Positions 1,235-55,764 of a stretch of DNA of 64,000 nucleotides are shown one piece after another. Position numbers and translations under genes: made by a program. The stretch's first letter is position 1, and every line of letters starts with the position of its first letter. The notes under the pieces are model-generated. The model did not search any database and was not told the DNA's origin. It saw nothing but the letters and a program-made list of their open reading frames with translations. The stretch lies in contig JACOXN010000009.1 of assembly GCA_016176295.1 (NCBI GenBank), positions 3,798 to 67,797 of the forward strand. Direction: 5' to 3'. Source of the stretch: Candidatus Giovannonibacteria bacterium. GTDB taxonomy: Bacteria > Patescibacteriota > Minisyncoccia > UBA11713 > 2-01-FULL-45-33.

Positions 1235-2078
1235 ATTCAGAACCTATTTTTTTAATAATACCACGGATTTCCATAAGGCCCACCATGGCTTGGATGTCTG
1301 AGGGTTTCATTTTGCTTTTTCTGATGATGGAATCCATGTCCGTCGGTTCGGTCAAATATTCAAAAATTTGTTTTTCCGGCGCGGAAAGTTCCGGTTCAAT
1401 TCCGGGCTCCGACATTGTTTCTAGGCCGTAGGCTTTCAGAACGTCCTCGGCGCTTTCCACGAGCGCAGCGCCCGATTTTATGAGAAAATTGGTGCCTGCT
1501 GCATTTGGTGAGAACGGGGAACCGGGAACGGCCAGAACGTCTCTATTTTGGTCTAGGGCGAATCTTGCAGTTATGAGTGAACCGCTTTTTTTTGGGGCTT
1601 CGACTACCAGCGTGGCCGGGGAGAGTCCGGAGATTATGCGGTTCCTTTGGGGAAAACTCCAGAGCGTCGCCTGAAAATTATTTTCGTATTCGGAAATTAC
1701 TGCGCCTCCGCGGGAGGCTATTTCTTCCGCCAATTTTAAATTATTCTGCGGGTAAAGCACCTTCTCGCCGAGGCCGGAACCCAGCACCGCAACGGTCGGC
1801 ATTTTATTTTCCAAACTTGCTCTGTGCGCGACGGTGTCGATGCCGAGAGCCAGGCCGCTTACTATAGTAAAGTTGTAAGGAACCAAACCCGCGATTATTT
1901 TTCTTAAAATCTCTTCACCGTATGCGGAGTTTTTTCTTGTGCCGACCACGGAGAGATAATATTTCGTTTTGGGAAATTTTCCCCAAATCGAAATTTTTTT
2001 GGGTACGTGCGGTATTTCCCGCAGCAAAGCCGGGAAATCCTTGTCTTCGGGGATTAATTCCTTTATCTCGCGAACCAT
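1221..2078 (-). CDS. dprA: DNA processing protein DprA/Smf
   Basis: ORF 1221..2135 carries VVGTRKNSAYGEEI, IVSGLALGIDTVAHRASL and LAVPGSPFSPNAAGTN. I moved the start to ATG 2078 (MVREIK), which is preceded by TTGTCA-N18-TATATA-N6. It overlaps the topA start by 14 nt. Confidence 0.85.
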   Translation of the reverse strand: MVREIKELIPEDKDFPALLREIPHVPKKISIWGKFPKTKYYLSVVGTRKNSAYGEEILRKIIAGLVPYNFTIVSGLALGIDTVAHRASLENKMPTVAVLGSGLGEKVLYPQNNLKLAEEIASRGGAVISEYENNFQATLWSFPQRNRIISGLSPATLVVEAPKKSGSLITARFALDQNRDVLAVPGSPFSPNAAGTNFLIKSGAALVESAEDVLKAYGLETMSEPGIEPELSAPEKQIFEYLTEPTDMDSIIRKSKMKPSDIQAMVGLMEIRGIIKKIGSEYVRA

Positions 2079-2084
2079 GAGGCA

Positions 2085-2114
2085 TATATAAGCACATACG
2101 CGCTGACTTGACAA
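2085..2114 (-). promoter_or_regulatory. sigma70-type promoter of dprA (TTGTCA-N18-TATATA), with the -10 box 6 nt from the ATG
   Basis: The minus strand reads TTGTCA agtcagcgcgtatgtgct TATATA tgcctc ATG. Confidence 0.5.
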
Positions 2115-2179
2115 GTTTTTATAAAAAGGTATCATTTTACCGGGTTTAGTTTACATAAAAAGGAAGGAGAATTTGGTCT

Positions 2180-2392
2180 ATGGCGTATCAAGCTACAGTG
2201 GTTGCTTTCCCGTGCGGAGCGGAAGTGGAGGTGGTTATTCCGGAGGCTAACAGGAAATACAGTCCTCCGGAGATGGAGTTGGAGGGTAAGAAGGCAGTGG
2301 TGCTTTCAAAACCTTATTCTAACCGCACAGTGGACATTTCGATCGAGGGCAAGCAACATAACGTGCCCGCCGCATATTTGCGGCGGAAATGA
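2180..2392 (+). CDS. small hypothetical protein (70 aa)
   Basis: ORF with a GGAAGGAGA Shine-Dalgarno-like site about 8 nt upstream. I recognise no family. Confidence 0.45.
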   Translation: MAYQATVVAFPCGAEVEVVIPEANRKYSPPEMELEGKKAVVLSKPYSNRTVDISIEGKQHNVPAAYLRRK

Positions 2393-2581
2393 GGAGAACA
2401 GCAATGAGTTCCGCCAGCCCGAAAGCCCTCGTCAGGACGACGAGAATAAAAACGGCGGTCGCTCACGGCCGAGCAAGATGTTTCCGATTGGGGCAACTCA
2501 CGGAGGGTCACGCGCCGAGTACGAATACCGTAACCGACGTGCGTAGGTCTTTTCTTCTTTTTCATTTACCAGCGAACAAAA

Positions 2582-2604
2582 AGAGCGCAAAGCGCTCTTT
2601 TTTT
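2582..2604. terminator. intrinsic terminator hairpin with bidirectional geometry
   Basis: AGAGCGC-AAA-GCGCTCT stem-loop flanked by an A-run upstream and a T-run downstream. Confidence 0.6.
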
Positions 2605-2630
2605 CTTTTGTTTTATGTCTTAAACGAGTT

Positions 2631-2655
2631 AGAGGGTGGTCGATGACCACCCTCT
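2631..2655. terminator. strong hairpin downstream of the minus-strand CSD gene
   Basis: Perfect 11-bp stem AGAGGGTGGTC/GACCACCCTCT with a 3-nt loop, about 20 nt beyond the stop at 2674. Confidence 0.45.
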
Positions 2656-2673
2656 TAACTTTTGTTGCTAGGC

Positions 2674-3624
2674 TCATGAATTGCCGGGTAGCTTCAGCTT
2701 CGTGCCGAAGGCTGCGTCAACGAAACTTTTGGTGTTTCCGTGGGTCGGCGATGCTTTTTGCAGTACCTCTGATCGTCGCTTTTTCGGGGGACAAATCGCA
2801 CGGGCGATTGCTGGCCCGAATTTTCGGAATGACGCTTTGCGGTTCTCTGCGAAATCCGGGTATTCCTGGATAATCTGCTCTTCGAGCTGGCGAGCCAGGT
2901 CGCGGTCGTCCGCGTACTCGGACGGGATTTCCAGGGTTTGCTGGAACGGCGTTTCCACGACGACCCAGCACCCGAGGTCGCGCCTGTCGACCATTGAGGT
3001 CGAGTCTTGCAACCGGATGCTGACTTTCTTCGCAGATACGCTGACATAGTTTCCGTCTTCCGATTTTTTCATGACGAGGACGAATCCTCCCCGTGGAAAG
3101 TCGTAAACCCACTCGCCGTGAGTCAACGCGCCGCCGTTGAAGTCTGTCGGCAGGAGAGTTACTCCTTCCGACTGTTTCTCCGGAAGTTCAACCGCGATGC
3201 GGGTGGACTTGCGGATGGAGGCGGGATGGCCGAAGTAAAGTGCGCGGACTCCGGAATCTGACTTGTAATCACGCGGATCCGCTTCGTTCTCTCTTTCAGG
3301 GAGAAAGATGCGACCGTCGGTGTAGACGCGGATGTCCACAACCTCAAGTGGGAGATTCCTATTTGATGTCCTTTCTGCCGCCAATTCCGGTAACCGCATC
3401 CGTTCACGAACTGGCTTCACTTTCTTCGCTTCCGGAAGATTCAATCTTCCGGATTGCGTAATGGGTATCGGAATGAATTCTACCTCTTCGCCCTCGTCGA
3501 GCGTATGGAAACCGGAGCCATGCGTAGCTACTTGCGAGAAATGCACGTGATATTCCGTTTTATTTTCACCAACGATCCTGCCATAGGCTTTGCCATTGTT
3601 GAACCATCTGACTTTACCTTTCAT
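2674..3624 (-). CDS. cold-shock domain (CSD) protein fused to a ~250-aa C-terminal region of unknown family
   Basis: MKGKVRWFNNGKAYGRIVGENKTEYHVHFSQV...GFHTLDEGEEVEF matches a CspA-like OB fold. AGGAGG lies 5 nt before ATG 3624. I do not recognise the rest of the 316-aa protein. Confidence 0.75.
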   Translation of the reverse strand: MKGKVRWFNNGKAYGRIVGENKTEYHVHFSQVATHGSGFHTLDEGEEVEFIPIPITQSGRLNLPEAKKVKPVRERMRLPELAAERTSNRNLPLEVVDIRVYTDGRIFLPERENEADPRDYKSDSGVRALYFGHPASIRKSTRIAVELPEKQSEGVTLLPTDFNGGALTHGEWVYDFPRGGFVLVMKKSEDGNYVSVSAKKVSIRLQDSTSMVDRRDLGCWVVVETPFQQTLEIPSEYADDRDLARQLEEQIIQEYPDFAENRKASFRKFGPAIARAICPPKKRRSEVLQKASPTHGNTKSFVDAAFGTKLKLPGNS

Positions 3625-3712
3625 AGAACCTCCTGTGCCTTTGTTTGACCGCACCTTTCGGCTAAAAAGGGTGCGGTGAGCCTATATTTCGGAGAACAAT
3701 CTAACTGGACTG

Positions 3713-3741
3713 ATTATATACCCAAAAGCTAAATTTGTCAA
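3713..3741 (-). promoter_or_regulatory. consensus sigma70-type promoter for the CSD-fusion gene
   Basis: The minus strand reads TTGACA-N17-TATAAT (both hexamers perfect). The predicted 5' UTR is ~80 nt and contains a GC-rich hairpin at 3648-3677. Confidence 0.65.
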
Positions 3742-3769
3742 CTTTTTTGCCTTTAATTTTGCGATGCTG

Positions 3770-3797
3770 TTGACAAGAAGAAAAAAGTGAGTATAAT
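3770..3797 (+). promoter_or_regulatory. consensus sigma70-type promoter for the 3978..4877 gene, divergent from the previous one
   Basis: TTGACA (3770-3775)-N16-TATAAT (3792-3797). The two -35 boxes form an inverted repeat TTGTCAAC...GTTGACAA. Confidence 0.65.
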
Positions 3798-3977
3798 GTG
3801 AAACAGGAAAGTTTGAAATTTTAGGCTCGAATCCAGCTAAGCTGGATTACGAAAGGAGGTAAAAAGAGCCTAGTTATCTGTGGAGCAGGCAGAAGCGTCC
3901 CGCATGAATGCGCAGGCATACGCGGGATACCGGATTGTTTTCCGTAAAATTTGGCCGAGGGGCCAAGGAGGTTTCCC

Positions 3978-4877
3978 GTGAAGAACGAAACAAAGGTTGG
4001 AAGTTTTTCCGATTTGAATGGTAAAGTGTTCGTGGTGGACCCTAGGGATGGGGCAGAGAAAGCGGCCGAAAAAATCGTGAGTGCGGCGATGCCCGCGGAG
4101 ATGAGGAACCCAACCCTCTCGGAGGCGTTGGGGCTTGATGTTGAGACGTTAGTGGCGGAGAACGAGGCGGATGTGGAGCTTCTGGTGGCTGAGATTGATA
4201 TGCTGTCCGATGCGCCGGAAAAACTGCGACGGTACGAGTCTCTCCTTGCCGAGACTGTTTCGGCAAATAAGAAAAAAGGCATCACGATTGACACCGACGC
4301 GACCACACGGCTCAAAAATGCGATCAGCACCCTTAAGGGCGCCGACAAGCTGGTGAGCAAAGACGCGGTGTCACTGGCGGGTTTTCGAAAGACCCACGGT
4401 GAGGTAGAGGCCATGGCCCGGAGGAGTGCGGAGCTTCTCCGACACGCTAAAGCTGGGGAGGAAGTGAAAGAGTCGGAAGTGGACAGTTTGATTGATGATT
4501 ATCGGGATCACTTCCACGAGCTGTATAACAGGCATCTCATTGCCGAGGTGCCTTATAAGCAGTTGGAATTGTGGAGAAACTCCCGGAAATCATTTTCGGA
4601 CTTCGCGTTTTCTGCGAAGGACAAAAAGGGCAACCGCGTATGGTGCTGGGGCAAGTTGGGCGATGAACAGTCGATGACTATTGCAAAGTCCATGAAAGGA
4701 CTTTACATTGCCATGGACCGCTTGGTTCGGTTTCTGGACAACCAGAAGACGAACGCGCAGCATATCGCTCAGTCGCTGTCAAAAGCCCAGCCTACCGCTC
4801 CTTCGTCAAAGCCTGTGTCGCCCGAGACGCCGCCCTACGAAATACCACCTTTTGATTCTTCGAGCCTGCCAAGCTAA
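3978..4877 (+). CDS. hypothetical protein, predicted helical/coiled with a Pro-rich C-terminus
   Basis: ORF 3951..4877. I prefer GTG 3978 as the start because AGGAGG lies 6 nt upstream. I recognise no family. Confidence 0.55.
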   Translation: MKNETKVGSFSDLNGKVFVVDPRDGAEKAAEKIVSAAMPAEMRNPTLSEALGLDVETLVAENEADVELLVAEIDMLSDAPEKLRRYESLLAETVSANKKKGITIDTDATTRLKNAISTLKGADKLVSKDAVSLAGFRKTHGEVEAMARRSAELLRHAKAGEEVKESEVDSLIDDYRDHFHELYNRHLIAEVPYKQLELWRNSRKSFSDFAFSAKDKKGNRVWCWGKLGDEQSMTIAKSMKGLYIAMDRLVRFLDNQKTNAQHIAQSLSKAQPTAPSSKPVSPETPPYEIPPFDSSSLPS

Positions 4878-4903
4878 TACGAAAGCCCTTGCGCTTTCTT
4901 CAA

Positions 4904-4932
4904 CCCCATGCAATCCATGCATGGGGTTTGAC
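4904..4932 (+). terminator. intrinsic terminator
   Basis: CCCCATGCA-ATCCA-TGCATGGGG 9-bp stem followed by TTTGACTTTTT. Confidence 0.6.
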
Positions 4933-4993
4933 TTTTTATTTAAACATGTTATAATCATGAAAAGCCTTAAATTTAGGCATATTTTATACTTAC

Positions 4994-5971
4994 ATGGCAG
5001 ACATTAAAGCAATCATTTTACCTACGAGGCCGCAGCCGGATACTTTGGTTACTATTTTTATTTTGAAAAGATTCGGCAAGGAACATCTCCCGGGAGTGGA
5101 AAACGCGCCGCTGGAGATTTGGCAGACATTGCCCGCGGGGAAATCCGCGCAGGATTTGGAAGCGGAAGGCTACATTTTGATAGATTTGGGCGGAGGAAAA
5201 TTCGACCATCATGATCAACGCGGAAAGACCACGGCTTCGCAGCTCGTGTGCGATTTTTTGGGGATATCCGAAGACCCGAGCCTGGCGAAACTTTTGGAGT
5301 ACGCGAGACGCGACGATTTTTTCGGCAAGGGAACAGTATCGGAAGACGCGCTCGACCGTACCTTCGGACTTTCAGGGTTGGTGGCCGCATTGAATAAAAG
5401 TTTGCCGAAAAATCCGCAGCGCATCGCGGACCTCATCATGCCGATATTAGCCGCCCATCACAACGAGGAATTGCGCCGAACCGTGGAACTGCCGGAGGAA
5501 TTTCAGGACAAAACCGCAAAGGGCCTCGTAAATATTACTGAAGCGAAGCAGCGCGGGAAAAAATTGAAGGTTGTTTTTATAGATTCAGATAATCCGAGCA
5601 TGGCGGGATTTTTGCGTTCGCAAAACGGCGGAAAATTCGACGTGGTGGCCCAGCGGTCACAGACCGGGCACGTGAACGTGCTGACGCGTGCCGCGAAGCA
5701 CATAGACCTCCGGTCGCTTGCGATAGTCATTCGGCTTGAAGAAATTTCCGTCCGCGGACGCGATGTTGAAATAAACGCGTCGGAACTTTCGCGCACCGGA
5801 AGATTGCGCGAGGCGCCGGAATGGTACTACGACCGCGCCACGAATTCCATACAAAACGGCGGCGTGAACCCCAAAGAGATTGAGCCCACCGCCATTTCCT
5901 GGGAAAAAATGCCCCAGCTTTTCGAGGTCGGCCTTTCCGAGCAGATCTGGAACCCACTTGCCACGGAATAA
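4994..5971 (+). CDS. hypothetical protein; the GGGKFDHHD motif is reminiscent of MYG1/UPF0160 (DHH-like) metal-dependent hydrolases
   Basis: 325-aa ORF. LIDLGGGKFDHHDQ resembles the MYG1 DVGG..D...DHHQ signature, but the N-terminal His motif is not evident. Confidence 0.5.
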   Translation: MADIKAIILPTRPQPDTLVTIFILKRFGKEHLPGVENAPLEIWQTLPAGKSAQDLEAEGYILIDLGGGKFDHHDQRGKTTASQLVCDFLGISEDPSLAKLLEYARRDDFFGKGTVSEDALDRTFGLSGLVAALNKSLPKNPQRIADLIMPILAAHHNEELRRTVELPEEFQDKTAKGLVNITEAKQRGKKLKVVFIDSDNPSMAGFLRSQNGGKFDVVAQRSQTGHVNVLTRAAKHIDLRSLAIVIRLEEISVRGRDVEINASELSRTGRLREAPEWYYDRATNSIQNGGVNPKEIEPTAISWEKMPQLFEVGLSEQIWNPLATE

Positions 5972-5994
5972 AATTTGTTTTAGGATACACTATT

Positions 5995-6240
5995 ATGACC
6001 ATTCGAATGCGCCACACGCCATCTCACACCGGAAACAGAAGGTCCCACCATGCCCTTCTGATCAACGGAACCCAAAAATGCACCAAATGCGGAGTGGTTG
6101 TTTTGCCCCATACTACCTGTGAAAATTGCGGATTTTACAAAGGAAAAGAAGTAATAAATGTTCTGGCTAAACTGAGCAAAAAAGAAAAGAAGATCAAAGA
6201 AAAAGAATTAAAAGAACAGGAACAGGGAAAAACAACTTAA
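5995..6240 (+). CDS. rpmF: 50S ribosomal protein L32 with a Lys/Glu-rich tail
   Basis: HTPSHTGNRRSHHAL...CTKCG...CENCGFYKGKEV has the basic N-terminus and CxxC...CxxC zinc ribbon of bL32. Confidence 0.85.
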   Translation: MTIRMRHTPSHTGNRRSHHALLINGTQKCTKCGVVVLPHTTCENCGFYKGKEVINVLAKLSKKEKKIKEKELKEQEQGKTT

Positions 6241-6297
6241 ATTTAAAAACGTTCGCTGAAGTTTGAAAAAAGTAAATTGAAAATTATTTCTTAAACT

Positions 6298-7200
6298 ATG
6301 GCCAACCGGCACCTTTCAAGATCAATAGCGATGCAGTCCCTCTTTGAATGGGATTTCTATCATGTTAAAGGCGAGGAGAAAGACCTGCACGTTATTCTTG
6401 AACGCAACGTTGAAGAGTTTGCTCCCGGCCTTGAGGACGGCGCGTTCGCGGAAAAATTGGGCAGAGGTTATCTGGACCACAGTGAAGAAATAGACGACAT
6501 CATAACAAAAGCCGCTCCGGAGTGGCCTATTTTGCAGATAGCCCCGGTGGATAGGAATGTTCTCCGCATCGGACTTTTCGAGCTTCTTTTCGGCGAAAGG
6601 AAAGAAGTCCCTCCGAAAGTCGCCATCAACGAAGCCATCGAGCTTGCAAAATCGTTCGGCGGGGACTCATCCGGAAGATTCGTAAATGGCGTTCTGGGAA
6701 CCGTTTACCGCGAATTGGGCGAGCCGGGAAAGGATGACACGGGAAAGAAAAGATATGAGCTCGACCTCGATAAGCTTCCCAAGGAAGAGCTGGGAGGAGC
6801 CGTGGTTTTTAGGCGGGACGGGAAAAAAATAATGTTTGCTCTGGTGCACGACGTTTTCGGTCGCTGGACTTTTTCCAAGGGCCATCTTGAAATCGGCGAG
6901 GATATTGCAACCGGAACGATGAGGGAAATACGCGAAGAATTGGGAGTGGTGGACCTTGAATTGGTAAAACAAATAGGAGATAACGAATACATTGCATTGG
7001 ACCCGGAAACAGGCCCCACGAGGAGGCATGTCAGTTATTTTTTGGCAGAGACGAAAGACAGGGAGCTGAAACTGGAGAGCTCCGGCGGGCTCGACGACGC
7101 GCAATGGTTCACTTTGGATGATGTCCGCGAGCTTAAAATGTACGATGACATCAAGCCGATATTGGATAGGGCCGTTGAAGAATTAAAAATTAAAGGATAA
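6298..7200 (+). CDS. nusB: transcription antitermination factor NusB fused to a C-terminal Nudix hydrolase domain
   Basis: N-terminal: SRSIAMQSLFEWDF...VDRNVLRIGLFELLF...PPKVAINEAIELAKSFGGDSSGRFVNGVLG. C-terminal: a perfect Nudix box GHLEIGEDIATGTMREIREELGV at nt 6880-6948. Confidence 0.85.
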   Translation: MANRHLSRSIAMQSLFEWDFYHVKGEEKDLHVILERNVEEFAPGLEDGAFAEKLGRGYLDHSEEIDDIITKAAPEWPILQIAPVDRNVLRIGLFELLFGERKEVPPKVAINEAIELAKSFGGDSSGRFVNGVLGTVYRELGEPGKDDTGKKRYELDLDKLPKEELGGAVVFRRDGKKIMFALVHDVFGRWTFSKGHLEIGEDIATGTMREIREELGVVDLELVKQIGDNEYIALDPETGPTRRHVSYFLAETKDRELKLESSGGLDDAQWFTLDDVRELKMYDDIKPILDRAVEELKIKG

Positions 7201-7319
7201 TTTCAGCATCGCCACAAAAATTTTTTCAGCGCCGACGCCCGATTTTTAGGCCGTACCGGCCAAATTGATGGGCATTGGCTACAGGCCGAAAAAATTTTTA
7301 TGTCGAAGCTTCAAATAAT

Positions 7320-8012
7320 ATGTTCGACATCACAGGACTTGAAAAAAAGCTTAGCGTGTCTTTCAAAGATAAGCAGCTTTTGACGGCCGCTCTTACGCAC
7401 CGCTCCTACATCAATGAAAATCCGGCTACGAGCACCGGACACAACGAGCGGATGGAATTTTTGGGCGACGCCGTGCTGGAACTTGCCATAACGGAATATA
7501 TTTATGAAAAATTTCCCGAAAAACCCGAAGGCGAGCTGACCAGCCTCCGCGCTTCGCTGGTCAATGCCAACATGTTGGGTGACATCGCCAATGATCTCGG
7601 AGTGAACAGTTTTTTGCTACTGTCGCGCGGCGAGGCTAAAGATGTCGGCCGCGCGCGTCTTTATATTTTGGCGAACGCCATGGAAGCCATAATCGGCGCG
7701 ATGTATCTCGACCGCGGTTACGAAACGACCAAAGATTTCATCATTCGGATACTCGCCCCTAAAATCGGCCCGATACTTGAAAAAAAACTTTACCGCGACG
7801 CCAAAAGTCTCTTCCAGGAAGAAGCCCAGGATAAGGTCGGCATCACGCCTACATATGAAGTATCCAAAGAATGGGGGCCTGACCACGACAAACATTTTGT
7901 TATCGGTGTCTATTTGAACGGTGATCTGATAGCCGAGGGCGAAGGTCCTTCGAAACAGAGCGCGCAGCAGCAAGCCGCCGAAGCGGCTTTGAAAGCCAAA
8001 GGCTGGGGCTAA
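7320..8012 (+). CDS. rnc: ribonuclease III
   Basis: ALTHRSY...NERMEFLGDAVLELAITEYIY signature followed by a C-terminal dsRBD. I set the start at ATG 7320 (MFDITGLEKKL). Confidence 0.9.
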   Translation: MFDITGLEKKLSVSFKDKQLLTAALTHRSYINENPATSTGHNERMEFLGDAVLELAITEYIYEKFPEKPEGELTSLRASLVNANMLGDIANDLGVNSFLLLSRGEAKDVGRARLYILANAMEAIIGAMYLDRGYETTKDFIIRILAPKIGPILEKKLYRDAKSLFQEEAQDKVGITPTYEVSKEWGPDHDKHFVIGVYLNGDLIAEGEGPSKQSAQQQAAEAALKAKGWG

Positions 8013-8041
8013 TAAAAGATAAATTTTTTTCTTTTATAAAA

Positions 8042-8064
8042 AACCGCTGAAGTTTTCAGCGGTT
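8042..8064. terminator. hairpin terminator shared by the convergent rnc and 8056..9138 genes
   Basis: AACCGCTGAA-GTT-TTCAGCGGTT 10-bp stem. A T-run follows it on the minus strand and an A-run precedes it on the plus strand. Confidence 0.6.
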
Positions 8065-9138
8065 GAATTGTACAACGTTTTTTGTGGCCTTTGCCCATGC
8101 GTCCTCTTCCGGCACGTCCTCGAAAATTTCCCGGGCGGTGATTTTCGGCATCCTGACCGGCGGGAAAGTTCTCTGGAGATAATTCAGGGGTTCTTTGTAT
8201 TCGGGTTTTCCCGACTCGATTTTCATATGCAGCAGAACCGACAGTCCCATAAGGTGTTTGCGGTAAAACGGGACCGAATCCTTCGGACGATGGAACGGGT
8301 TGAACTCCGGGTTCAGTTTCATTATTGGAATTATTTCCGGCGCCCGAGTTTCGCCTTCCACTCCATGCGTGTTTAAGGGGCCATATGATTCTTCGACGTG
8401 AAAGTAGTAGTTTTCGTACGGGGTTCTGTTTTTTTCGTTCTTATCTCGGTTGGGAGAACTTTTGGCGCAAATGAGCGAGAATTTTGGAATGATATGGATA
8501 ACGCCGTTCACATTTTTCTCCGACCAGCAGGTCTGGCCGGTTTCTTCTGCATATTCGCGGGTGAGAGTTGCTGCCGCCATTCCGAAGGGTTCCCACAAGG
8601 ATTTTTCCCTGTTCCAGACCATATCCCAGACCTTGTTCTCTTTTCTGAGTTCCTCTTCGTCGAACGCGTCCCATTTTTCCATGTCGCCTGCGGGGAATCC
8701 GTATCCGTCCGGCTTTATGAATTTCCGGTTGCGGCACCAGGCCAAAAGTCCTTCCCAGCGGATGCCTTCGGGGGTTCCCGGCTGAACGTCTTTTTTGGCT
8801 TCGTTCACAATCGTTTTCCAGTCGAGAAGCGTGGGGCATTCAGCCGGGTAAGTGCTGAGAAAAATATAGACATCGTCCGGTGTCTCAACATTGAAATTCA
8901 AAAGTCGCTGGTCCATAACATATTTTACGGTCCGGTCCCATCTGAGCCAGGGGAGCTTTTCCGGGTGGCAGCCAGATTCGATGACTTCGAGCTCAAACCT
9001 TTTCCAATCGAGGAAAGACGGGCGTTCCGAGGGGTTTTCCATGAGCCATTTTTTGACCATGGTCTCGGTTTTTATGTTAAAAACAGCTAGTACTGAAGAT
9101 TCTCTTTCCAACTTTATGCCGAGAGCCATACCTTTCAT
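8056..9138 (-). CDS. hypothetical protein with two N-terminal sequence repeats and a degenerate Nudix-box-like motif
   Basis: 360-aa ORF with AAAGGAGAA upstream of the ATG. The repeats are ERPSFLDWKRFE...LPWLRWDR and ECPTLLDWKTIV...GIRWEGLLAW. The REYAEETG motif is present without a full Gx5Ex7 spacer. Confidence 0.6.
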   Translation of the reverse strand: MKGMALGIKLERESSVLAVFNIKTETMVKKWLMENPSERPSFLDWKRFELEVIESGCHPEKLPWLRWDRTVKYVMDQRLLNFNVETPDDVYIFLSTYPAECPTLLDWKTIVNEAKKDVQPGTPEGIRWEGLLAWCRNRKFIKPDGYGFPAGDMEKWDAFDEEELRKENKVWDMVWNREKSLWEPFGMAAATLTREYAEETGQTCWSEKNVNGVIHIIPKFSLICAKSSPNRDKNEKNRTPYENYYFHVEESYGPLNTHGVEGETRAPEIIPIMKLNPEFNPFHRPKDSVPFYRKHLMGLSVLLHMKIESGKPEYKEPLNYLQRTFPPVRMPKITAREIFEDVPEEDAWAKATKNVVQFNR

Positions 9139-9291
9139 TTGCGGTTCTCCTTTTTGAGTCCTTCATAAACTTCATAAATTTTTCATGTGTTCTTTTTTGA
9201 TACTACATTGAGAGCAACTTTTGTCAATACTATTTAATTTTCGGAAAATCTCGCTTTACGCAGTTTAATTTGGTATATTTTAAAATAAACC

Positions 9292-11448: not shown

Positions 11449-11451
11449 CTC

Positions 11452-11473
11452 ACTTAGCAATCCGATTGCCAAG
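11452..11473 (+). repeat. 22-nt REP-like imperfect palindrome, 5' copy flanking RAYT-1
   Basis: ACTTAGCAATCCGATTGCCAAG, with stem CTTAGCAATC/GATTGCCAAG (one A-C mismatch). It starts 4 nt after the smc stop. Confidence 0.8.
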
Positions 11474-45274: not shown

Positions 45275-45283
45275 GAGATTGAA

Positions 45284-47316: not shown

Positions 47317-47324
47317 ACCGCCCG

Positions 47325-47351
47325 ACCGCGTTACACAAACGCGGTTTTTTT
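47325..47351 (+). terminator. intrinsic terminator
   Basis: ACCGCG-TTACACAAA-CGCGGT followed by a T7 run. Confidence 0.65.
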
Positions 47352-47355
47352 GTTC

Positions 47356-47361
47356 TATAAT
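47356..47361 (+). promoter_or_regulatory. -10 box TATAAT 6 nt upstream of the glmS ATG
   Basis: TATAAT attggt ATG. This leaves no room for a glmS ribozyme. Confidence 0.45.
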
Positions 47362-47367
47362 ATTGGT

Positions 47368-49221
47368 ATGTGCGGAATAGTCGGTTACATAGGAAAACGG
47401 CAGGCCCTTCCCATCGTCATTGAAGGGTTAAAGCGCCTTGAATACAGAGGTTATGACTCTGCGGGAGTGGCTTTGTGGGACGGTAAAAAGCTCCAGGATG
47501 AAAGGGCGGCCGGGAGGATCTCCGTTCTTGAAGGAAATCTCCAAAGGAAATCGTGGGCGGGGAACCTGGCCATTGCGCATACCCGCTGGGCCACTCATGG
47601 TAAACCGTCCGAAGCCAACGCGCATCCGCAGTCCGATTGCACGAAAGGAATAGAAGTCGTGCACAACGGCATAATCGAAAATCACGCTGAGCTCCGGGAG
47701 GCGCTCATCCGCGAAGGGCATAAATTCGTTTCGGATACTGATACTGAGGTCATCTCACATCTCATCGAGCGCGCTTTTTTGGTCAACGCCAAAGAAAAAA
47801 TTTTACTTGAACACGCAGTTTTGGACGGGCTTCGGCACGTTACCGGTACTTTCGGAATTGCCGTTATTTCCAAGCATGACCCGCGCAAACTTGTAGCTGC
47901 GAGGCGAGGTTCTCCCCTGATTCTAGGGATTGGCAAGGACGAATTTATGGTTTCTTCCGACGTTTCGGCGATCGTGGAGCACACTAGAAAGGTGGTCTAT
48001 CTCCACGATGACGAGCTCGCCGTGCTAACACCTCAAGGGTACGAAATTTTAGGTTTTAACAAAAAAACAATTTCCAAGCCTTTAAATACGATTGACTGGG
48101 ACGTGGTTTCGGCACAAAAGGGCGGCTATCCTCACTTTATGAAAAAGGAGATATTTGAGGGGCCGGAAACATTGGAAAACGCTTTCCGGGGGAGATTGCT
48201 TGAAGCCGGAAAAGGGGGCCTTGTGAAATTGGGCGGAATCGAGGAAATAAAAAATAAGCTTTTGACCGTTCGCAGAATACTTGTTGTCGCCTGCGGTACG
48301 TCTTATTACGCGGGGCTCGTGGGAAAATATTTTTTTGAGAATTTTTCCCGAATACCGTGTTCCGTGGAGCATGCATCGGAATTCCGGTATTCAAATCCCG
48401 TCCTTGAGAAAAATACTCTTGTCATCGCAATTTCACAGTCCGGCGAAACCGCCGACACGCTGGAAGCATTACGCGACGCAAAAAAACGCGGTGCGCTCGC
48501 TATCGGTATTGTGAACGTGGTTGGCTCCACCATAGCGCGGGAATCGGATGCCGGAGTTTATAACCATGCGGGGCCGGAGATAGGAGTTGCTTCTACTAAA
48601 GCTTTCCTATCGCAGCTTGGTGTATTGGCGCTTTTGGCCATGCTTTTGGGGAAAGAAAAAGAGGCTGTATCCGAAGTTATGCTGCAGAAGTTTTCGGCGG
48701 AGCTGAAATCCCTGCCGGTCAAAATAAAAAAAATACTAGCCATGGATGAAAAAATAAGAAAACTAGCGGAAAAATATCTTAAATACGATAATTTCCTTTT
48801 TCTCGGGCGCAAATACCAGTACCCCGTGGCGTTGGAAGGAGCCTTAAAATTGAAAGAGATTTCATACAAATACGCCGAAGGGCTGGCTGCGGGGGAGATG
48901 AAGCACGGCCCTATTGCTTTGGTAGACGAAGACATGCCCTGCATAGTGCTCGCTCCAAAGGATAGCGTCTATGAAAAAATGCTTTCCAACATCGAGGAAA
49001 TAAAAGCGCGCGGCGGAAAAATTTTGGCGGTGGCAACGGAAGGCGACGAACGGATAGCGAAGCTGGCCGATGACGTTATCTATATTCCGCACACGATGGA
49101 GGAGGCCGCACCCTTTCTCTCCGTGGTGCCGCTCCAGCTTTTCGCGTATCACACATCCGACCTTCTTGGGCTCGACGTTGATAAGCCCAGGAATCTGGCG
49201 AAGTCGGTAACTGTCGAATAA
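47368..49221 (+). CDS. glmS: glutamine--fructose-6-phosphate aminotransferase
   Basis: MCGIVGYIG N-terminal nucleophile, two SIS domains and the C-terminal KSVTVE. Confidence 0.92.
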   Translation: MCGIVGYIGKRQALPIVIEGLKRLEYRGYDSAGVALWDGKKLQDERAAGRISVLEGNLQRKSWAGNLAIAHTRWATHGKPSEANAHPQSDCTKGIEVVHNGIIENHAELREALIREGHKFVSDTDTEVISHLIERAFLVNAKEKILLEHAVLDGLRHVTGTFGIAVISKHDPRKLVAARRGSPLILGIGKDEFMVSSDVSAIVEHTRKVVYLHDDELAVLTPQGYEILGFNKKTISKPLNTIDWDVVSAQKGGYPHFMKKEIFEGPETLENAFRGRLLEAGKGGLVKLGGIEEIKNKLLTVRRILVVACGTSYYAGLVGKYFFENFSRIPCSVEHASEFRYSNPVLEKNTLVIAISQSGETADTLEALRDAKKRGALAIGIVNVVGSTIARESDAGVYNHAGPEIGVASTKAFLSQLGVLALLAMLLGKEKEAVSEVMLQKFSAELKSLPVKIKKILAMDEKIRKLAEKYLKYDNFLFLGRKYQYPVALEGALKLKEISYKYAEGLAAGEMKHGPIALVDEDMPCIVLAPKDSVYEKMLSNIEEIKARGGKILAVATEGDERIAKLADDVIYIPHTMEEAAPFLSVVPLQLFAYHTSDLLGLDVDKPRNLAKSVTVE

Positions 49222-51443: not shown

Positions 51444-52571
51444 TTACGATCTTATGTTCTTTAGGCGTTCCAGATTTTCTTTTTCGCGCTGGCGTTTTTC
51501 GTAAATTCTGCGCATGTGCCATCCAGTGAGGAAAGCGGCAAGAAGCAGAAATATCAGCACAAGCCATCCGCCCAGCGAATGCGGGAGAAGATCCCCCGAA
51601 AAAGCGACGGCCGCAGTGGTGCTTGTGGCTCTGATTTTGGAAGCGTCTGACGCGGTCCCGCTGTTGCCGGTTATTTTGGCGCCAGCACCGGTCGGCGAGG
51701 GTAAAGCCGAAGAAAAAGGCGGAGAAGTCGCAGGAACGGGTTCCGTGGAAGCCACGGCATCGGGGCCGGTTTTAAAACTGAAAGTTGAGCCGTAAGCGAT
51801 GCCATACTGGTTCCGGATAGCAGCTCTAAAATAATAACTTGTGTTGGGGAGAAGCCGGGTTAATTTTTGGTCGAAATCTATGGTGGTTTTTGAGCCGATA
51901 TTTTCGCTGTCCGTTTTATTTTGAAGGTCTGTGGAAGGGCCCCATTCAAACCATCCTTCGGTCGGAGTGCTTATTCCCGGAAGAGCTACGCCAGTCAAAA
52001 TCGCGCTTTCTTTTAAAACCGATTTTGCCGGATTTGTTACCGCAATCGGTTTTATTGTTTGCGTTGTAGCTCCCGGGCTTGTTACCGGAATCAGTCCGCT
52101 GTTTCCGGTCGGTTGGTTGGAAGTTCCGGTGGAGCCGGACGAACCGGTCGAGCCGGAACCCGTTCCCGTGGAACCCGATGTAGGATTTGGTCCGGTTTTA
52201 AAGTTTAATGTGCTTCCGTAAGCTGCGCCAGCCGATCCGGAGTCGGAGTTCTGGGCCACAATGCGGAAATAATAAACAGTGTTTCTGTTTAAATTTCTTG
52301 CAATGGCAACATTAGGCCCCGAACCTGTAGGCATATACGGATTTCTAAAAGTCGAATTTGTCATACTGCCGGATGATTCTCCATATTCAAACCATGTAAC
52401 CATGTTCGTGCCTCCGTTGGCATCAGCGTACCCATTTAAAGTAGCGTCGTTTTCCGAGATAAAGGAAGCCGGGTTGGTCGTAACTATTGGAGCGCCGGCA
52501 AAAACAGGGTAGGCTAAAATAGTCCAGAAAACCGAACTGGTTATGAACATTTTCCACGTGTATTGAGTCAT
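51444..52571 (-). CDS. cell-surface protein: signal peptide, two FN3-like repeats, Ser/Gly/Thr linkers and a C-terminal TM anchor
   Basis: Repeat 1 is ATLNGY..WFEYG..YYFRIVA..YGSTLNFKTGP. Repeat 2 is AILTGV..WFEWG..YYFRAAI..YGSTFSFKTGP. The C-terminus is WLVLIFLLLAAFLTGW followed by a basic tail. Confidence 0.7.
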   Translation of the reverse strand: MTQYTWKMFITSSVFWTILAYPVFAGAPIVTTNPASFISENDATLNGYADANGGTNMVTWFEYGESSGSMTNSTFRNPYMPTGSGPNVAIARNLNRNTVYYFRIVAQNSDSGSAGAAYGSTLNFKTGPNPTSGSTGTGSGSTGSSGSTGTSNQPTGNSGLIPVTSPGATTQTIKPIAVTNPAKSVLKESAILTGVALPGISTPTEGWFEWGPSTDLQNKTDSENIGSKTTIDFDQKLTRLLPNTSYYFRAAIRNQYGIAYGSTFSFKTGPDAVASTEPVPATSPPFSSALPSPTGAGAKITGNSGTASDASKIRATSTTAAVAFSGDLLPHSLGGWLVLIFLLLAAFLTGWHMRRIYEKRQREKENLERLKNIRS

Positions 52572-52627
52572 ACTTTAAGTTTATTAATATTATATTTAAT
52601 AAGGCATATTAACATTTTCTTCATCAA

Positions 52628-53197
52628 ATGTCAAGTGTTAAAAAACCCTCATATTTCAACGTTTCAACACCCATTTTGGCGGAAGAACTTCTGGGAAAAT
52701 TTCTCGTCCGCAGCTTGGAAAATAAAACTATAGCGCTAATGATAACCGAAGTCGAGGCATATGAAGGCTTCGCGGATAAAGCATCGCACGCGTCGCGCGG
52801 GCGCACATTGAGGAATGAGCCTATGTTTGGCGAGGCGGGGCGTTGGTATGTATATTTTACCTATGGCATGCATTGGATGCTGAATATCGTGGCCGGGCCG
52901 AAAGACTATCCCGCGGCGGTTTTGATTCGTGGCGTCAGAAGTCCGACTTCTCTCAAACTTGAGAGAAGTCGGACTTCTGACGTTATAAATGGTCCGGCCA
53001 AACTCACTAAATTTTTAAAAATAGACGGAAAACTGAACGGAAAGCTTGCAGCCATTGAGTCTGGTTTATGGATAGAAGACAGAGGAGTGAAAATAAAACC
53101 AATCGAAATAAAAAAAAGCCCGCGGGTAGGAGTTTCCTACGCGGGTCCGTATTGGGCTCGGCGAAATTGGAGGTTTTATCTTAAAGACAGCGTGTAA
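52628..53197 (+). CDS. mpg: DNA-3-methyladenine glycosylase (Mpg/AAG family)
   Basis: LLGKFLVR, ITEVEAYEGFADKASHASRGRTLRNEPMFGEAGRWYVYFTYGMHWMLNIV, AAVLIRG and NGPAKLTKFL. Confidence 0.85.
   Translation: MSSVKKPSYFNVSTPILAEELLGKFLVRSLENKTIALMITEVEAYEGFADKASHASRGRTLRNEPMFGEAGRWYVYFTYGMHWMLNIVAGPKDYPAAVLIRGVRSPTSLKLERSRTSDVINGPAKLTKFLKIDGKLNGKLAAIESGLWIEDRGVKIKPIEIKKSPRVGVSYAGPYWARRNWRFYLKDSV
52934..52981. repeat. REP family 2 inverted doublet (perfect 23-bp arms, 2-nt spacer) inside the mpg CDS, in frame
   Basis: GTCAGAAGTCCGACTTCTCTCAA-AC-TTGAGAGAAGTCGGACTTCTGAC. It is 48 nt (16 codons) and is translated VRSPTSLKLERSRTSD. Confidence 0.85.
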
Positions 53198-54309
53198 TTT
53201 TCATATCGCGGATCTTTGGTGACTTCTTTCGTTCTGCCGAGCCATTTGGAAATTGAGACCTTGCTGTTCTCTTCGGTGACCTCTATCTCCAGAATCTGCA
53301 GACCATGCAGCCTTTTGGGCTCCAGGAACGTATCCAGCTCGAAGTACTGGTTGTCCGACAAAAAACAGGTTCGGATTTTTTTGAGGGTGTCGTGGATCGG
53401 GCTTCGCGTTTTCAACAAACTGTAAAATTTTGACGAACTTATCCGTTCCTCCCGTTCTTCGCGTGCGCCTTCCGTGATATGCGTTTTGAAAGTCTGGTAG
53501 TAAACCGAATCGTTTCCTTGAGTTCTTTTCCTTGCCCTGCTTTCCCAGCCGTCATGCTGCGCCATGTAAGCTTGCTCTATCACAAAATGTTCACAGTGTA
53601 CGGGGAGAGAGGTATGGTCGACTTGGGACCGCAAAAGGAATTTCTTTTCTATCTCGAGTACAACCGGCACGCCTATTATCCGCTGTATCTCCGCGAGCAT
53701 TCTTCGCATCTTACCCCTGAACAAAGTGGAGTTGTCTATCACTCTTAAGTGCGGGTGCCCAACCCAGATTTTTTTCGAACGGTCATCTGCCGCCCTGGCT
53801 TCGTCGAGTGTCTTTTCAAAACGCGCTTCGTTATTCTCCAGGGTGTAGAATTTTTCTTTGCCGTAAGCGGCGGTTACCAGGAAGATACCGCCGCCGTAAC
53901 GCTTTTCTCTCAGGTCGGATTTTTTGAGTCCTCTTAATTTCAGGTACCGCGCCTGTTCTTCCTCCGTCATGTAAGCGAATGCGCTGATGCAGGCGCGGTC
54001 CGGGATCAGGATTTTCTTCCGCCCTTTCTTTATGTTTAGGAGCGGCTTGAATACCCGGTCTTCGAGATAAAATTGCATGTCGATCATTGCGCATTCGAAG
54101 TTAAAGAAGGCTTCACGTCCGTATTTCTCGATGATCTCCGGGGGTTTCATGCCGAAATGATTTATCAGCAAAGTGGCGGCTTCCGGGGTCGTAGCTACCG
54201 CGATACCGGAGTTGGTCAGTTTTTCAAAAGCATAATTCAAACCGGTCGTTTTGCCGCTGCAGGGCCCCCCGTCCAATGGCACGACGATTATGTCATCCTT
54301 TTCTTTCAT
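53176..54309 (-). CDS. P-loop NTPase (AAA_28/nucleoside-kinase-like) fused to a C-terminal CYTH (triphosphate tunnel) domain
   Basis: Walker A LDGGPCSGKTTG. CYTH motifs in order: EIEKKFLL, SRARKR, EEREERI, KIRTCF, FELDTF and ILEIEV. The 3' end overlaps the mpg 3' end by 22 nt (convergent). Confidence 0.75.
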   Translation of the reverse strand: MKEKDDIIVVPLDGGPCSGKTTGLNYAFEKLTNSGIAVATTPEAATLLINHFGMKPPEIIEKYGREAFFNFECAMIDMQFYLEDRVFKPLLNIKKGRKKILIPDRACISAFAYMTEEEQARYLKLRGLKKSDLREKRYGGGIFLVTAAYGKEKFYTLENNEARFEKTLDEARAADDRSKKIWVGHPHLRVIDNSTLFRGKMRRMLAEIQRIIGVPVVLEIEKKFLLRSQVDHTSLPVHCEHFVIEQAYMAQHDGWESRARKRTQGNDSVYYQTFKTHITEGAREEREERISSSKFYSLLKTRSPIHDTLKKIRTCFLSDNQYFELDTFLEPKRLHGLQILEIEVTEENSKVSISKWLGRTKEVTKDPRYENYTLSLR

Positions 54310-54444
54310 TTTATTCCTTTTTAAAGATGCACCTGCCCACAGATTATCATAAAAGACGAAAGTTCAGCAGAATTGACAAAAGAAAGGTCGGTTGTTACTT
54401 TGAAAAAAGTAGCGTTCAACGCACATTGAAAGGTAAACGGCGTT

Positions 54445-55158
54445 ATGAAGTATTTGATTGCCGTTTTTTTATTTTTTGGATGGGTGTCTAATTCATCCGC
54501 TTTATCCTTTAACATGGGTCCCGAGTCTTTCTATTACACCGCTGACGAGATACGCGCCGCATTCGGCTACCACTACAACCACGGTAAGCGTCTGGAGTGC
54601 CCCATTTCGTGGGCGGGCGCGGGATACCATACGGTTTCCGGCGGTGAGGACATAGCCATATCTGATGCATTCGTAAAAAAAGTGGAAGAACACGTAAAGC
54701 AGATGTTCGAAGCGGGTGCCGCCAGATATTTATTCATGCCGGATGCGGGCCATGCGCATCTCATTTTGCCCCGGGAGAAAGCTCAAAAATATTTGGCGTT
54801 GCCCACCATGCTGCAGAAGCTGAAAGCCGTCCTTGAGGATGCCGAGCTCGGCGCGCTTTACCACACGGCGGAGTATCTCTCCGTGCATCCGGGTGATGCT
54901 TCCGACGTTTATGAGTGGAAGGCAAAAAGGAATGTTATAGGGTGGTTTGACGGGAGACCCATAAATATCCTGCCTCCGCACGAATTCGGCCATGGCCTCG
55001 GTGCACCGGACGGTTTTACGACTGTCAGCAATTTCGATATTTCCGCCCATAGAGAAGGCATATTCTACCTTGTTCCGAGTCCGGACAGCTCCGGAGTTAT
55101 CCAGGGCATGTCATTCGATATCTCATTTTTCAATACGGGAGCGGGGGATTGCAAATAA
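54445..55158 (+). CDS. secreted hypothetical protein (237 aa)
   Basis: Signal peptide MKYLIAVFLFFGWVSNSSA. I recognise no family. Confidence 0.5.
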   Translation: MKYLIAVFLFFGWVSNSSALSFNMGPESFYYTADEIRAAFGYHYNHGKRLECPISWAGAGYHTVSGGEDIAISDAFVKKVEEHVKQMFEAGAARYLFMPDAGHAHLILPREKAQKYLALPTMLQKLKAVLEDAELGALYHTAEYLSVHPGDASDVYEWKAKRNVIGWFDGRPINILPPHEFGHGLGAPDGFTTVSNFDISAHREGIFYLVPSPDSSGVIQGMSFDISFFNTGAGDCK

Positions 55159-55203
55159 GTTCCGGTTTACATAGCCGGGCTTTTTCTTTTATAATTGGGT
55201 ACA

Positions 55204-55764
55204 ATGCGGACAATTTTTTTTACCGGGAAAGGAGACGAAGGCGAAAGCTATGTGGGAGACCATAAAACCCCCAAGGACGATATTTTGTTCTATGTATTGG
55301 GTTCTTTAGACGAGCTTAATTCTTGGCTGGGCTTCTGCCGGGCGGAAGCCGAGCGCTCGAAAGTGCTGGATACCCATTTGGCGCTGAAAAATATACAAGA
55401 GACGCTTTTCATCGCGCAAGCTGAGATATATGCCGGATTTGACGAAGACGCGGCCATAAAAGTAAAAAGGATAACGCCGGAGAAAGTGGCGTTTTTGGAA
55501 GAAATAATAAAGAAGGTGGACGGAACGCTTCCCAAAATAAATAAATTCATAATTCCGGGAGGCTCGGAACTTGCCGCCCGGCTGGATGTGGCGCGCGCCC
55601 TCGCCCGCCGCGCCGAGCGCCTGGCTGTAAGCCTGGGGCGTGAAAGGGGAGTTTCTCCGGATCTTCTGAGGTATTTGAACCGCCTTTCCTCGGCCCTCTT
55701 CGCCCTCGCGCGTTTCGTGAATTTCAAAACTAATTTTAAGGAGGACAATCCGACGTATTTGTGA
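55204..55764 (+). CDS. PduO-type ATP:cob(I)alamin adenosyltransferase family protein
   Basis: TGKGDEGES, LGSLDELNSWLG, FIIPGGSELAARLDVARALARRAER and YLNRLSSALFALAR. Confidence 0.8.
   Translation: MRTIFFTGKGDEGESYVGDHKTPKDDILFYVLGSLDELNSWLGFCRAEAERSKVLDTHLALKNIQETLFIAQAEIYAGFDEDAAIKVKRITPEKVAFLEEIIKKVDGTLPKINKFIIPGGSELAARLDVARALARRAERLAVSLGRERGVSPDLLRYLNRLSSALFALARFVNFKTNFKEDNPTYL

Follow-up and report, generated by a model that had tools for sequence, protein, structure and literature searches.

The DNA analysed here is a 64,000-nt stretch (the window) of contig JACOXN010000009.1 from a Candidatus Giovannonibacteria bacterium (assembly GCA_016176295.1, positions 3,798 to 67,797). It has a GC content of 47%, and Pfam annotation defines a compact set of about 59 genes, located mainly on the plus strand. 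The gene content includes aminoacyl-tRNA synthetases, dprA, topA, smc, glmS and pyrG, two Y1-transposase-like (RAYT) genes, and a type IV pilus cluster (pilM, pilB, a pilin gene, a receiver-domain gene, pilT, pilC, another pilin gene and pilD). The nearest relatives of PilB (56–67% identity) are encoded in Parcubacteria/Paceibacterota assemblies (GW2011_GWC1_45_13, Giovannonibacteria and Niyogibacteria). Scanning the window against Rfam and for tRNAs gave no rRNA, tRNA or Rfam match. A feature shared by many of these genes, and the subject of this analysis, is a TANNNT hexamer (hereafter the box) that resembles the -10 element of a bacterial promoter and lies a fixed short distance ahead of the start codon (Table 1).

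An earlier note on this DNA had listed 14 start codons preceded by such a hexamer. All 14 hexamer/ATG pairs are present, at the listed positions or within 1 nt of them (the TATAAT of pilD occupies 26924-26929, not 26923-26928). The motif itself does not fit dprA, the weakest of the 14, whose TATATA ends in A. The spacer (the number of nucleotides that separate the hexamer from the ATG) is 6 nt at 11 of the 14 sites, 7 nt at two (alaS and M16) and 8 nt at one (adoT). Four further genes with a box at 6 nt had been missed (ATG 13764, 31717, 58973 of the dsbA-like gene, and 52571 on the minus strand), three of which have a recognisable -35 element. The statement that none of the listed genes has a Shine-Dalgarno (SD) site was nearly right: no AGGAG-type site lies within 3–11 nt of any box-type start, but there is a GGAGG at the pilin gene and a GAGG at pilD, each 12 nt upstream.

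The positional signal is real and far above chance. In order to avoid a circular selection of starts, the first ATGs of all six-frame open reading frames (ORFs) with 100 or more codons were taken as an annotation-free set (n=88). A TANNNT lies at spacer 6 ahead of 14 of these 88 ATGs, against a mean of 2.43 at spacers 10–30 (5.8-fold, Poisson p=3e-7). The spacer profile of internal in-frame ATGs (n=285) is flat, without a TANNNT peak, and no such peak is found at first GTG or TTG codons. A second set consisted of 59 curated gene starts, with 5000 shuffles of each -40 to -1 region as the control. Here, the box is found at spacer 6 in 15 of the 59 (2.04±1.39 in the shuffles, z=9.3) and at spacers 5–8 in 22 of the 59 (8.0±2.6), so that the comparison with shuffled controls called for in the earlier note gives an excess well beyond what AT-rich composition yields. 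Overall, roughly a quarter to a third of genes have a box at exactly 6 nt. Exact TATAAT occurs 39 times on both strands of the window; six of these copies are exactly 6 nt ahead of the ATG of a gene.

Table 1. Start signals of box type and of SD type in the window (leader lengths are predictions)
Gene	Interval (strand)	Promoter or SD elements	Spacer (nt)	Start codon	Remarks
dprA	2076-2090 (-)	TATATA 2085-2090	6	ATG 2078	imperfect box, not TANNNT; TTGTCA 17-18 nt upstream
hypothetical 237-aa gene	13752-13766 (+)	TTGCCG-16-TATAAT, box 13752-13757	6	ATG 13764	within mnmA 3' end
alaS	15659-15674 (+)	TAAAAT	7	ATG 15672	Pfam tRNA-synt_2c profile from residue 5
pilM	19288-19302 (+)	TATAAT	6	ATG 19300	terminator-like hairpin 19223-19244 and T-run upstream, after aminotransferase gene
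pilB	20434-20451 (+)	TGcTAAAAT, box 20437-20442	6	ATG 20449	box overlaps pilM stop codon
major pilin	22151-22165 (+)	TAATAT	6	ATG 22163	box inside pilB end; GGAGG 12 nt upstream
receiver-domain gene (REC)	22606-22623 (+)	TGcTAATAT	6	ATG 22621	
pilC	24126-24140 (+)	TATAAT	6	ATG 24138	
RAYT-2 (Y1-transposase-like)	26856-26870 (-)	TTGATA-18-TATACT, box 26865-26870	6	ATG 26858	
pilD	26924-26938 (+)	TATAAT 26924-26929	6	ATG 26936	
ileS unit	27722-27763 (+)	TGcTATAGT 27746-27754	6	ATG 27761	hairpin 27722-27740 and T-run upstream
642-aa hypothetical gene	31682-31719 (+)	TTGCCC-17-TATAAT, box 31705-31710	6	ATG 31717	inside recO 3' end
M16 peptidase	34988-35006 (+)	TGtTAAAAT, box 34991-34996	7	ATG 35004	
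tatD	39063-39080 (+)	TGaTAATAT	6	ATG 39078	Pfam TatD profile from residue 5
leuS	42315-42355 (+)	TTGTCA-17-TGgTATTTT, box 42338-42343	9	ATG 42353	borderline; leader 2-3 nt
glmS unit	47324-47370 (+)	TATAAT 47356-47361	6	ATG 47368	hairpin 47324-47346 and T-run upstream
375-aa secreted or membrane protein gene	52569-52583 (-)	TAAACT 52578-52583	6	ATG 52571	alternative TTGACA-17-TAATAT promoter 28 nt further upstream
cobalamin adenosyltransferase (adoT) unit	55161-55206 (+)	TTTACA-18-TATAAT, box 55190-55195	8	ATG 55204	hairpin 55161-55179 upstream
dsbA-like gene	58939-58975 (+)	TTGACA-16-TACAAT, box 58961-58966	6	ATG 58973	best full promoter placed for a leaderless start
70-aa ORF	2108-2182 (+)	TTGACA-16-TATCAT 2108-2135; AGGAG 2165-2169	10	ATG 2180	
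cold-shock-domain (CSD) fusion gene	3624-3741 (-)	TTGACA-17-TATAAT 3741-3713; AGGAGG 3629-3634	4	ATG 3624	leader ~82 nt
GTG-start hypothetical gene	3770-3980 (+)	TTGACA-16-TATAAT 3770-3797; AGGAGG 3966-3971	6	GTG 3978	leader ~174 nt
116-aa ORF	15255-15268 (+)	AGGAGG 15255-15260	5	ATG 15266	
class-III aminotransferase	17867-17878 (+)	GGAGG 17867-17871	4	ATG 17876	
small ORF and aldehyde dehydrogenase operon	41976-42321 (-)	TTGACA-16-TATATT 42321-42294			
small ORF of this operon	(-)	AGGAG 42250-42254	7	ATG 42242	
aldehyde dehydrogenase of this operon	(-)	AGGAG 41983-41987	6	ATG 41976	
86-aa ORF	45176-45286 (+)	TTGACA-17-TAAACT 45176-45204; AGGAG 45273-45277	6	ATG 45284	

The box has the characteristics of a -10 element recognised by a sigma-70-type factor, as the earlier note had proposed, and its position would place the transcription start (+1) at the A of the ATG. 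A profile was compiled from 56 box sites pooled from the window and related loci and compared with all TANNNT hexamers or with other starts. The consensus is TAtAAT, with exact TATAAT at 20 sites. TG at -15/-14, the hallmark of an extended -10 element (TGn), is present at 17 of the 56 sites (30%), compared to 5.5% of all TANNNT hexamers (p=6e-9), and TRTG at 11% compared to 0.7% (p=3e-6); within the window, TGn is found at pilB, REC, ileS, M16, tatD and leuS. T is favoured at -17, and positions -5 and -4 are A-rich. Position -1 tends to be a pyrimidine (70% of box sites versus 56% of other starts, p=0.06), a preference that would fit a transcript beginning with the A of the start codon. The match to a -35 element is good for dsbA, adoT, RAYT-2, and the 237-aa and 642-aa genes, and poor for pilM, pilC, REC and the pilin. 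Full -35/-10 matches put +1 on the ATG of dsbA and of the genes starting at 13764 and 31717. Two perfect 12/12 consensus promoters in one intergenic region of the window indicate that the canonical promoter of this organism is E. coli-like.

The boxes of ileS, glmS, adoT and pilM are immediately preceded by terminator-like hairpins with T-runs, and in the pooled set the figure for such hairpins is 6/56 compared to 15/397 (p=0.03), fitting an order of terminator, promoter and ATG within intergenic gaps of 45–65 nt. Where a gene has a divergent neighbour or is separated from the upstream gene by 40 nt or more, a box precedes it in about 40% of cases; for shorter gaps the figure is about 30%. Several of the genes with these shorter gaps have a -35 or a TGn of their own, or a terminator just upstream, and may thus be true starts of transcription units.

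Related loci, collected around two genes (pilB and M16), show the same geometry. The spacer-6 peak is strongest in the four closest relatives (L001–L004; 15/75, p=1.5e-10), is clear in 13 loci from Giovannonibacteria and Niyogibacteria (27/290, p=9e-7), and is weaker in 17 other loci from the candidate phyla radiation (CPR; 15/220, p=0.002); the separate M16-centred loci also display it (6/61, p=0.008). Among non-CPR loci, the 25 with a GC of 0.47 or below have no significant peak (15/362, 1.3-fold), and the 21 with GC above 0.47 have 0/618 at spacer 6. At orthologous pilB, pilin, pilD, M16, tatD and leuS genes, whose products are 44–67% identical, the box is kept at 6–8 nt while the flanking DNA is unalignable. 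The pilB orthologues of L001–L004 have TAGAAT or TATAAT exactly 6 nt from the start, those of the pilin gene (L001, L002 and L004) TAAAAT, TAATAT or TAACAT at 6 nt, and those of pilD in six Giovannonibacteria loci (L006, L007, L009, L011, L012 and L016) TAGAAT, TATAAT or TAAAAT at 6 nt. For M16, the orthologous elements are TGaTAGAAT at 6 nt (L081) and TATTCT at 7 nt (L082), for tatD TAGAAT at 7 nt (L082), and for leuS TGaTAGAAT at 8 nt (L083). The in silico evidence thus supports conservation of the box at orthologous genes and its specificity to this lineage. Syntenic orthologues of alaS, ileS, smc and mnmA were not found in the pilB-centred loci. The closest relative in a metagenome scan with the M16 protein was at most 65% identical, which makes fine-scale footprinting of the intergenic regions impossible.

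In several related loci (L011, L013, L016 and others), TATAAT lies 6 nt ahead of an ATG and right after an apparent tRNA 3' end (…GGTTCGATTCCTCGCG…), which would leave almost no spacer between the tRNA and the putative leaderless gene.

The start codons implied by the box are, in most cases, supported by independent observations. There is no alternative start codon upstream within the ORFs of alaS, pilB, the pilin, REC, ileS, M16 and tatD, and in-frame stop codons a short way upstream add to the evidence. The Pfam profile begins within the first six residues of the products of alaS, REC, tatD and adoT (residue 6 in adoT), and the N_methyl motif of the pilin is at residues 5–28. The glmS product begins with MCGIVGY, which we take to be the expected GlmS N-terminus, including Cys2. 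The N-termini of orthologues, including those of pilC and M16, align within one or two residues. An independent gene caller chose the same starts for pilC (405 aa), RAYT-2 (230 aa), ileS, M16, tatD, glmS, and the 642-aa and 237-aa genes, and residue 1 of the minimal DprA of H. pylori aligns within about two residues of the 2078 start, fitting the shorter dprA. The suggestion that the box helps in choosing start codons therefore holds, since independent calls and homology agree with the shorter starts of pilC, glmS, ileS, M16, tatD and RAYT-2. Likewise, several starts in the original ORF list were indeed too far upstream: choosing the longest ORF gives a wrong start for pilM, pilC, glmS and adoT, and probably also for pilD and dprA. 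In such genomes, starts will be misplaced by any gene caller that relies on an SD site or extends each gene to its longest ORF, and CPR proteomes derive almost wholly from automatic calls on metagenome-assembled genomes.

The start of RAYT-1 (11426-12151) is ambiguous. The gene calls of two assemblies use GTG 11522 and ATG 11504; the latter follows TTGCCA-17-TATAAT with a 9-nt spacer (predicted leader of 2–3 nt). The longest ORF, from ATG 11426, has a TAAAAT at 6 nt, yet this ORF overlaps smc by 23 nt.

From the geometry, enrichment, promoter-like features, conservation and lineage restriction of the box, we infer the position of the transcription start and the mode of translation. Judged on the DNA sequence, the mRNAs of the box genes are probably leaderless, with transcription beginning at the A of the ATG. 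The hexamers would act as sigma-70-type -10 elements, often extended (TGnTAtAAT) and with a weak -35, and RNA polymerase would start at the seventh nucleotide past the final T of the box. The resulting transcripts would begin with 5'-AUG and lack both a 5' untranslated region and an SD site; for their translation, the ribosome and initiator tRNA would bind directly to the AUG at the 5' terminus. In this compact genome, such promoters would often occupy the last codons of the preceding gene or follow its terminator directly. With a promoter within or just past the preceding gene, tightly packed co-directional genes can be separate transcription units. A smaller set of genes would be translated conventionally, from AGGAG(G) sites 4–11 nt ahead of the start, several of them behind a TTGACA/TATAAT promoter and a leader of 38–174 nt.

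Several observations weigh against this interpretation. The pooled -35 profile is weak (T-35 0.48, G-33 0.34), and some members are weak or ambiguous, namely dprA (TATATA), pilD, adoT (8 nt) and leuS (9 nt). For dprA and pilD, the independent gene caller prefers other starts (ATG 2135 and ATG 26918, respectively), and the pilin gene has, besides its box, a GGAGG 12 nt upstream. The pooled counts are partly from orthologous, not independent, sites, since the loci were fetched around pilB and M16. Finally, genes only 0–25 nt from their upstream gene carry about a third of the boxes, and the distance logic of GeneMarkS-2 would treat such genes as "internal" and read the motif as a ribosome-binding signal.

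The closest alternative is that the boxes are genuine promoters whose mRNAs are not strictly leaderless, having either very short leaders or true start codons further downstream. Spacers of 7–9 nt do exist (alaS, M16, adoT, leuS and ATG 11504 of RAYT-1), and the distance from the -10 element to the transcription start varies by 1–2 nt in known promoters. However, 15 genes have a spacer of exactly 6 nt, and the pyrimidine tendency at -1 suits initiation at A. Downstream starts would, in addition, remove conserved N-termini such as Cys2 of GlmS, the leader peptide of the pilin, and the beginnings of Pfam profiles at residues 4–6. We consider this alternative unlikely. It is also largely a refinement of the leaderless interpretation, as leaders of up to 3 nt would behave as leaderless in practice.

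A second alternative, to which we assign a slightly lower probability again, is that the box acts in translation, as an AU-rich ribosome-binding element of non-SD type on mRNAs that are leadered or polycistronic, similar to that of Bacteroidetes (group B of GeneMarkS-2). The box is found ahead of close co-directional genes (gaps of 9 nt for pilB, 4 nt for the pilin, 4 nt for dsbA and 25 nt for M16) about as often as after long gaps. Non-SD initiation is also plausible in this lineage, given that the anti-SD motif was detected in no more than 48% of Parcubacteria 16S rRNA genes (PMC9297842). On the other hand, the invariant T-12, A-11 and T-7 are characteristic of sigma-70 recognition, as are the TATAAT consensus and the TGn/TRTG extension, and there is one fixed spacing, 6 nt, instead of a range. 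No described ribosome-binding signal is known to us that has these sigma-70 characteristics. The seemingly internal cases have a -35 or TGn of their own (13764, 31717, dsbA, pilB, REC and M16), and terminators lie immediately upstream of several boxes, whereas many truly abutting genes (pilT, recO, ydjM, pyrG and trxB) lack the box. The enrichment of AGGAG, described below, shows that an SD mechanism operates. A group B motif would be expected ahead of nearly all genes, internal ones included, and at spread spacings; here the box precedes only 22 of 59.

An origin by chance, from AT-rich upstream DNA (70% AT in the 20 nt ahead of starts) or from the TAA/TAG stop codons of preceding genes, which some boxes overlap (pilB and the pilin), is refuted by the composition-matched shuffles, by the restriction of the excess to one spacer length, by the lack of a peak in non-CPR loci of the same GC, and by the over-representation of exact TATAAT and TGn, and we regard it as hardly credible.

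Leaderless initiation would not be the only mode in this genome. AGGAG occurs at spacers 3–13 from seven curated starts (0.57 expected, p=2e-6) and, once four starts are refined, AGGAG(G) or GGAGG is found at 4–11 nt in 11 genes. The SD sites claimed in the earlier note for a set of accessory genes are present at every gene named. Six of the SD genes are located behind promoters with a perfect TTGACA -35 and have predicted leaders of 38–174 nt. The enrichment shows that the SD mechanism operates and, by implication, that a functional anti-SD sequence exists. The conserved 16S 3' motif was not found in any of the 96 fetched loci. About half of the genes (29/59) have neither a box nor an SD site, and many of these abut or overlap the upstream gene; they are probably translated from polycistronic RNA, many of them coupled to the upstream gene. 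The proposal of two co-existing initiation modes is thus supported insofar as both classes occur side by side, but there are three classes rather than two. A division of the promoters themselves into two classes, with a perfect -35 for SD genes and only a -10 element for leaderless genes, was rejected: about half of the box genes have a TTGnnn -35, and that of dsbA is perfect.

The further proposal that core genes are leaderless and accessory genes SD-led fares less well. The accessory SD sites are real, but there is no clean division. The core genes leuS, metG, pyrG, rnc and rpmF have no box at 5–8 nt, or a weak one; the two RAYT genes, the most atypical in the window (32–34% GC), are of the box type; and ordinary enzymes, namely the aldehyde dehydrogenase, the aminotransferase and an HD hydrolase, are SD-led. 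In composition, SD genes have a higher median GC than box genes (0.506 versus 0.477, p=0.006; 11 SD genes, with classes that are partly judgement calls), as well as higher GC at third codon positions and a poorer fit to the codon usage of the window (p=0.018, n=11). No compositional difference was found between box genes and unclassified genes. An annotation-free replication of the composition test in relatives was noisy, with p<0.05 in one of three sets. A separation of native from acquired genes, as the earlier note had suggested, is therefore weakly supported: the compositional difference exists in the window, and its replication reached significance in a single set of relatives.

Two regions with SD-led genes have additional features. 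The two perfect 12/12 sigma-70 promoters mentioned above are arranged back to back at 3713-3797, where they would drive the CSD fusion gene and the GTG-start gene; the block 2180-4877 has the highest GC of the window (0.50–0.54). Between alaS and the class-III aminotransferase lies an ORF-free gap of 389 nt (17487-17875), an unusual length in this genome. At its end, just ahead of the GGAGG and the ATG at 17876, is a terminator-like hairpin (17831-17848) with seven T, an arrangement that would suit an attenuator-type leader. The gap has no Rfam family above threshold, and its folding is not unusual (z-score -0.9).

A palindrome, GAAGTCSGACTTC, is present in five exact copies in the window (26142-26154, 26678-26690, 26876-26888, 52938-52950 and 52965-52977). 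Two copies flank the RAYT-2 gene (26166-26858), an arrangement known from RAYT transposases and their repetitive extragenic palindromic (REP) elements. A longer palindrome, TGATAGAAGTCCGACTTCTATCA, located between the RAYT-2 and pilD promoters, includes the copy at 26876. In four relatives (L007, L011, L016 and L019), this palindrome is found 25–40 nt upstream of the pilD -10 box, and could represent a conserved operator or a REP-like element.

Exact-protein look-ups identified the same organism, at 100% identity, in the Logan assemblies of SRR12113430, SRR12113420 and SRR12113424. Being identical, these matches contain no polymorphism information, and they extend the window by only 709 nt. 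Logan contig SRR12113430_42880 equals window positions 1-15791 exactly, except for 110 extra nucleotides at 12590/12591 (L094 13300-13409), in the divergent gap between a 128-aa ORF and mnmA. With the insertion, the two genes are called from different starts (as 150 aa and 392 aa in the Logan assembly), and no other copy of the inserted sequence is present in the window. Unusual domain arrangements are found in three proteins: a histidine-phosphatase (His_Phos_1) domain is inserted in IleRS (27761-31201) at residues 493–659, a NUDIX domain is inserted in LeuRS (42353-45274) at residues 382–513, and NusB is fused to a NUDIX domain (6298-7200).

The arrangement of the box genes most closely resembles group C of GeneMarkS-2, a dual promoter/SD model in which TANNNT 6–8 nt from the start is the signature of leaderless genes, with backing from differential RNA sequencing (dRNA-seq) in Mycobacterium tuberculosis and Deinococcus deserti (PMC6028130, PMC3898074, PMC4007540). 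As in these Actinobacteria and Deinococcus-Thermus, the box lies at 6–8 nt from many genes, is enriched over background, and is not accompanied by an SD site, while SD-led genes coexist with it. The share is also similar, with 25–50% of the first genes of transcription units predicted to be leaderless in group C (PMC6028130, PMC3898074, PMC4007540) and about 40% of genes with an upstream gap or a divergent neighbour carrying the box here. There are, however, several differences. The window promoters often lie inside the preceding gene or right next to its terminator, and the leaderless starts proposed here, unlike the dRNA-seq-backed ones, are deduced from sequence. GUG-initiated leaderless mRNAs are found in mycobacteria. 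The window shows no GTG peak, in contrast to Deinococcus with its GUG-initiated leaderless mRNAs (PMC4007540). Moreover, group C genomes using genetic code 11 are reported to be almost all of high GC (bioRxiv 10.1101/2022.07.25.500264), whereas the window, at 47% GC, is from the CPR/Parcubacteria.

Low-GC members of group C are the code-4 Mollicutes (Mycoplasma and relatives), in which 30–60% of transcripts are predicted to be leaderless (bioRxiv 10.1101/2022.07.25.500264). They share with the present organism a small, reduced genome of low to medium GC, but belong to an unrelated phylum, and TGA is a stop codon in the window (code 11). With regard to the promoters, the enrichment of T-17, R-16, T-15 and G-14 ahead of TAtAAT, together with a weak -35, is similar to the extended -10 (TGn/TRTGn) sigma-A promoters of Gram-positive bacteria. 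In B. subtilis, such promoters normally drive leadered mRNAs. The non-SD motifs of Bacteroidetes are likewise AT-rich, positioned shortly upstream of starts and found at closely spaced genes; unlike them, the box combines TATAAT and TGn at one fixed distance, is absent from many abutting genes, and coexists with SD sites. The inference of leaderless genes from a -10-like signal beside the start codon was made earlier by Zheng et al. (2011), who used a "TA-like signal about 10 bp upstream" to predict such genes across bacterial genomes, in a survey that predates CPR genomes (PMC3160421).

No paper that connects leaderless genes with CPR, Patescibacteria, Parcubacteria or Saccharibacteria turned up in our literature search. 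The mechanism is a known one, here in a lineage and GC range for which we found no description. We tentatively suggest, as a proposition with somewhat less than even chances, that leaderless initiation is a main mode of expression across Paceibacteria/Parcubacteria, and less so in other CPR bacteria, with extended -10 elements joined to the preceding gene at its end or its terminator, so that tightly packed genes form one-gene transcription units, while a compositionally distinct minority keeps the full TTGACA/TATAAT promoter and AGGAGG. The bS1 protein of CPR bacteria is short, and bS21 is often absent from Parcubacteria (PMC9297842). If true, the proposition would go together with this reduced translation apparatus, including an anti-SD motif detected in about half of Parcubacteria, and common leaderless mRNAs would place the unusual CPR ribosome in a functional context. 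The box is a practical marker of promoters and transcription-unit boundaries in unculturable organisms, and expression tools could be built on it. Should leaderless mRNAs prove common in Parcubacteria, a large, deep-branching lineage of medium GC would join Actinobacteria, Deinococcus-Thermus, Mollicutes and archaea in their use.

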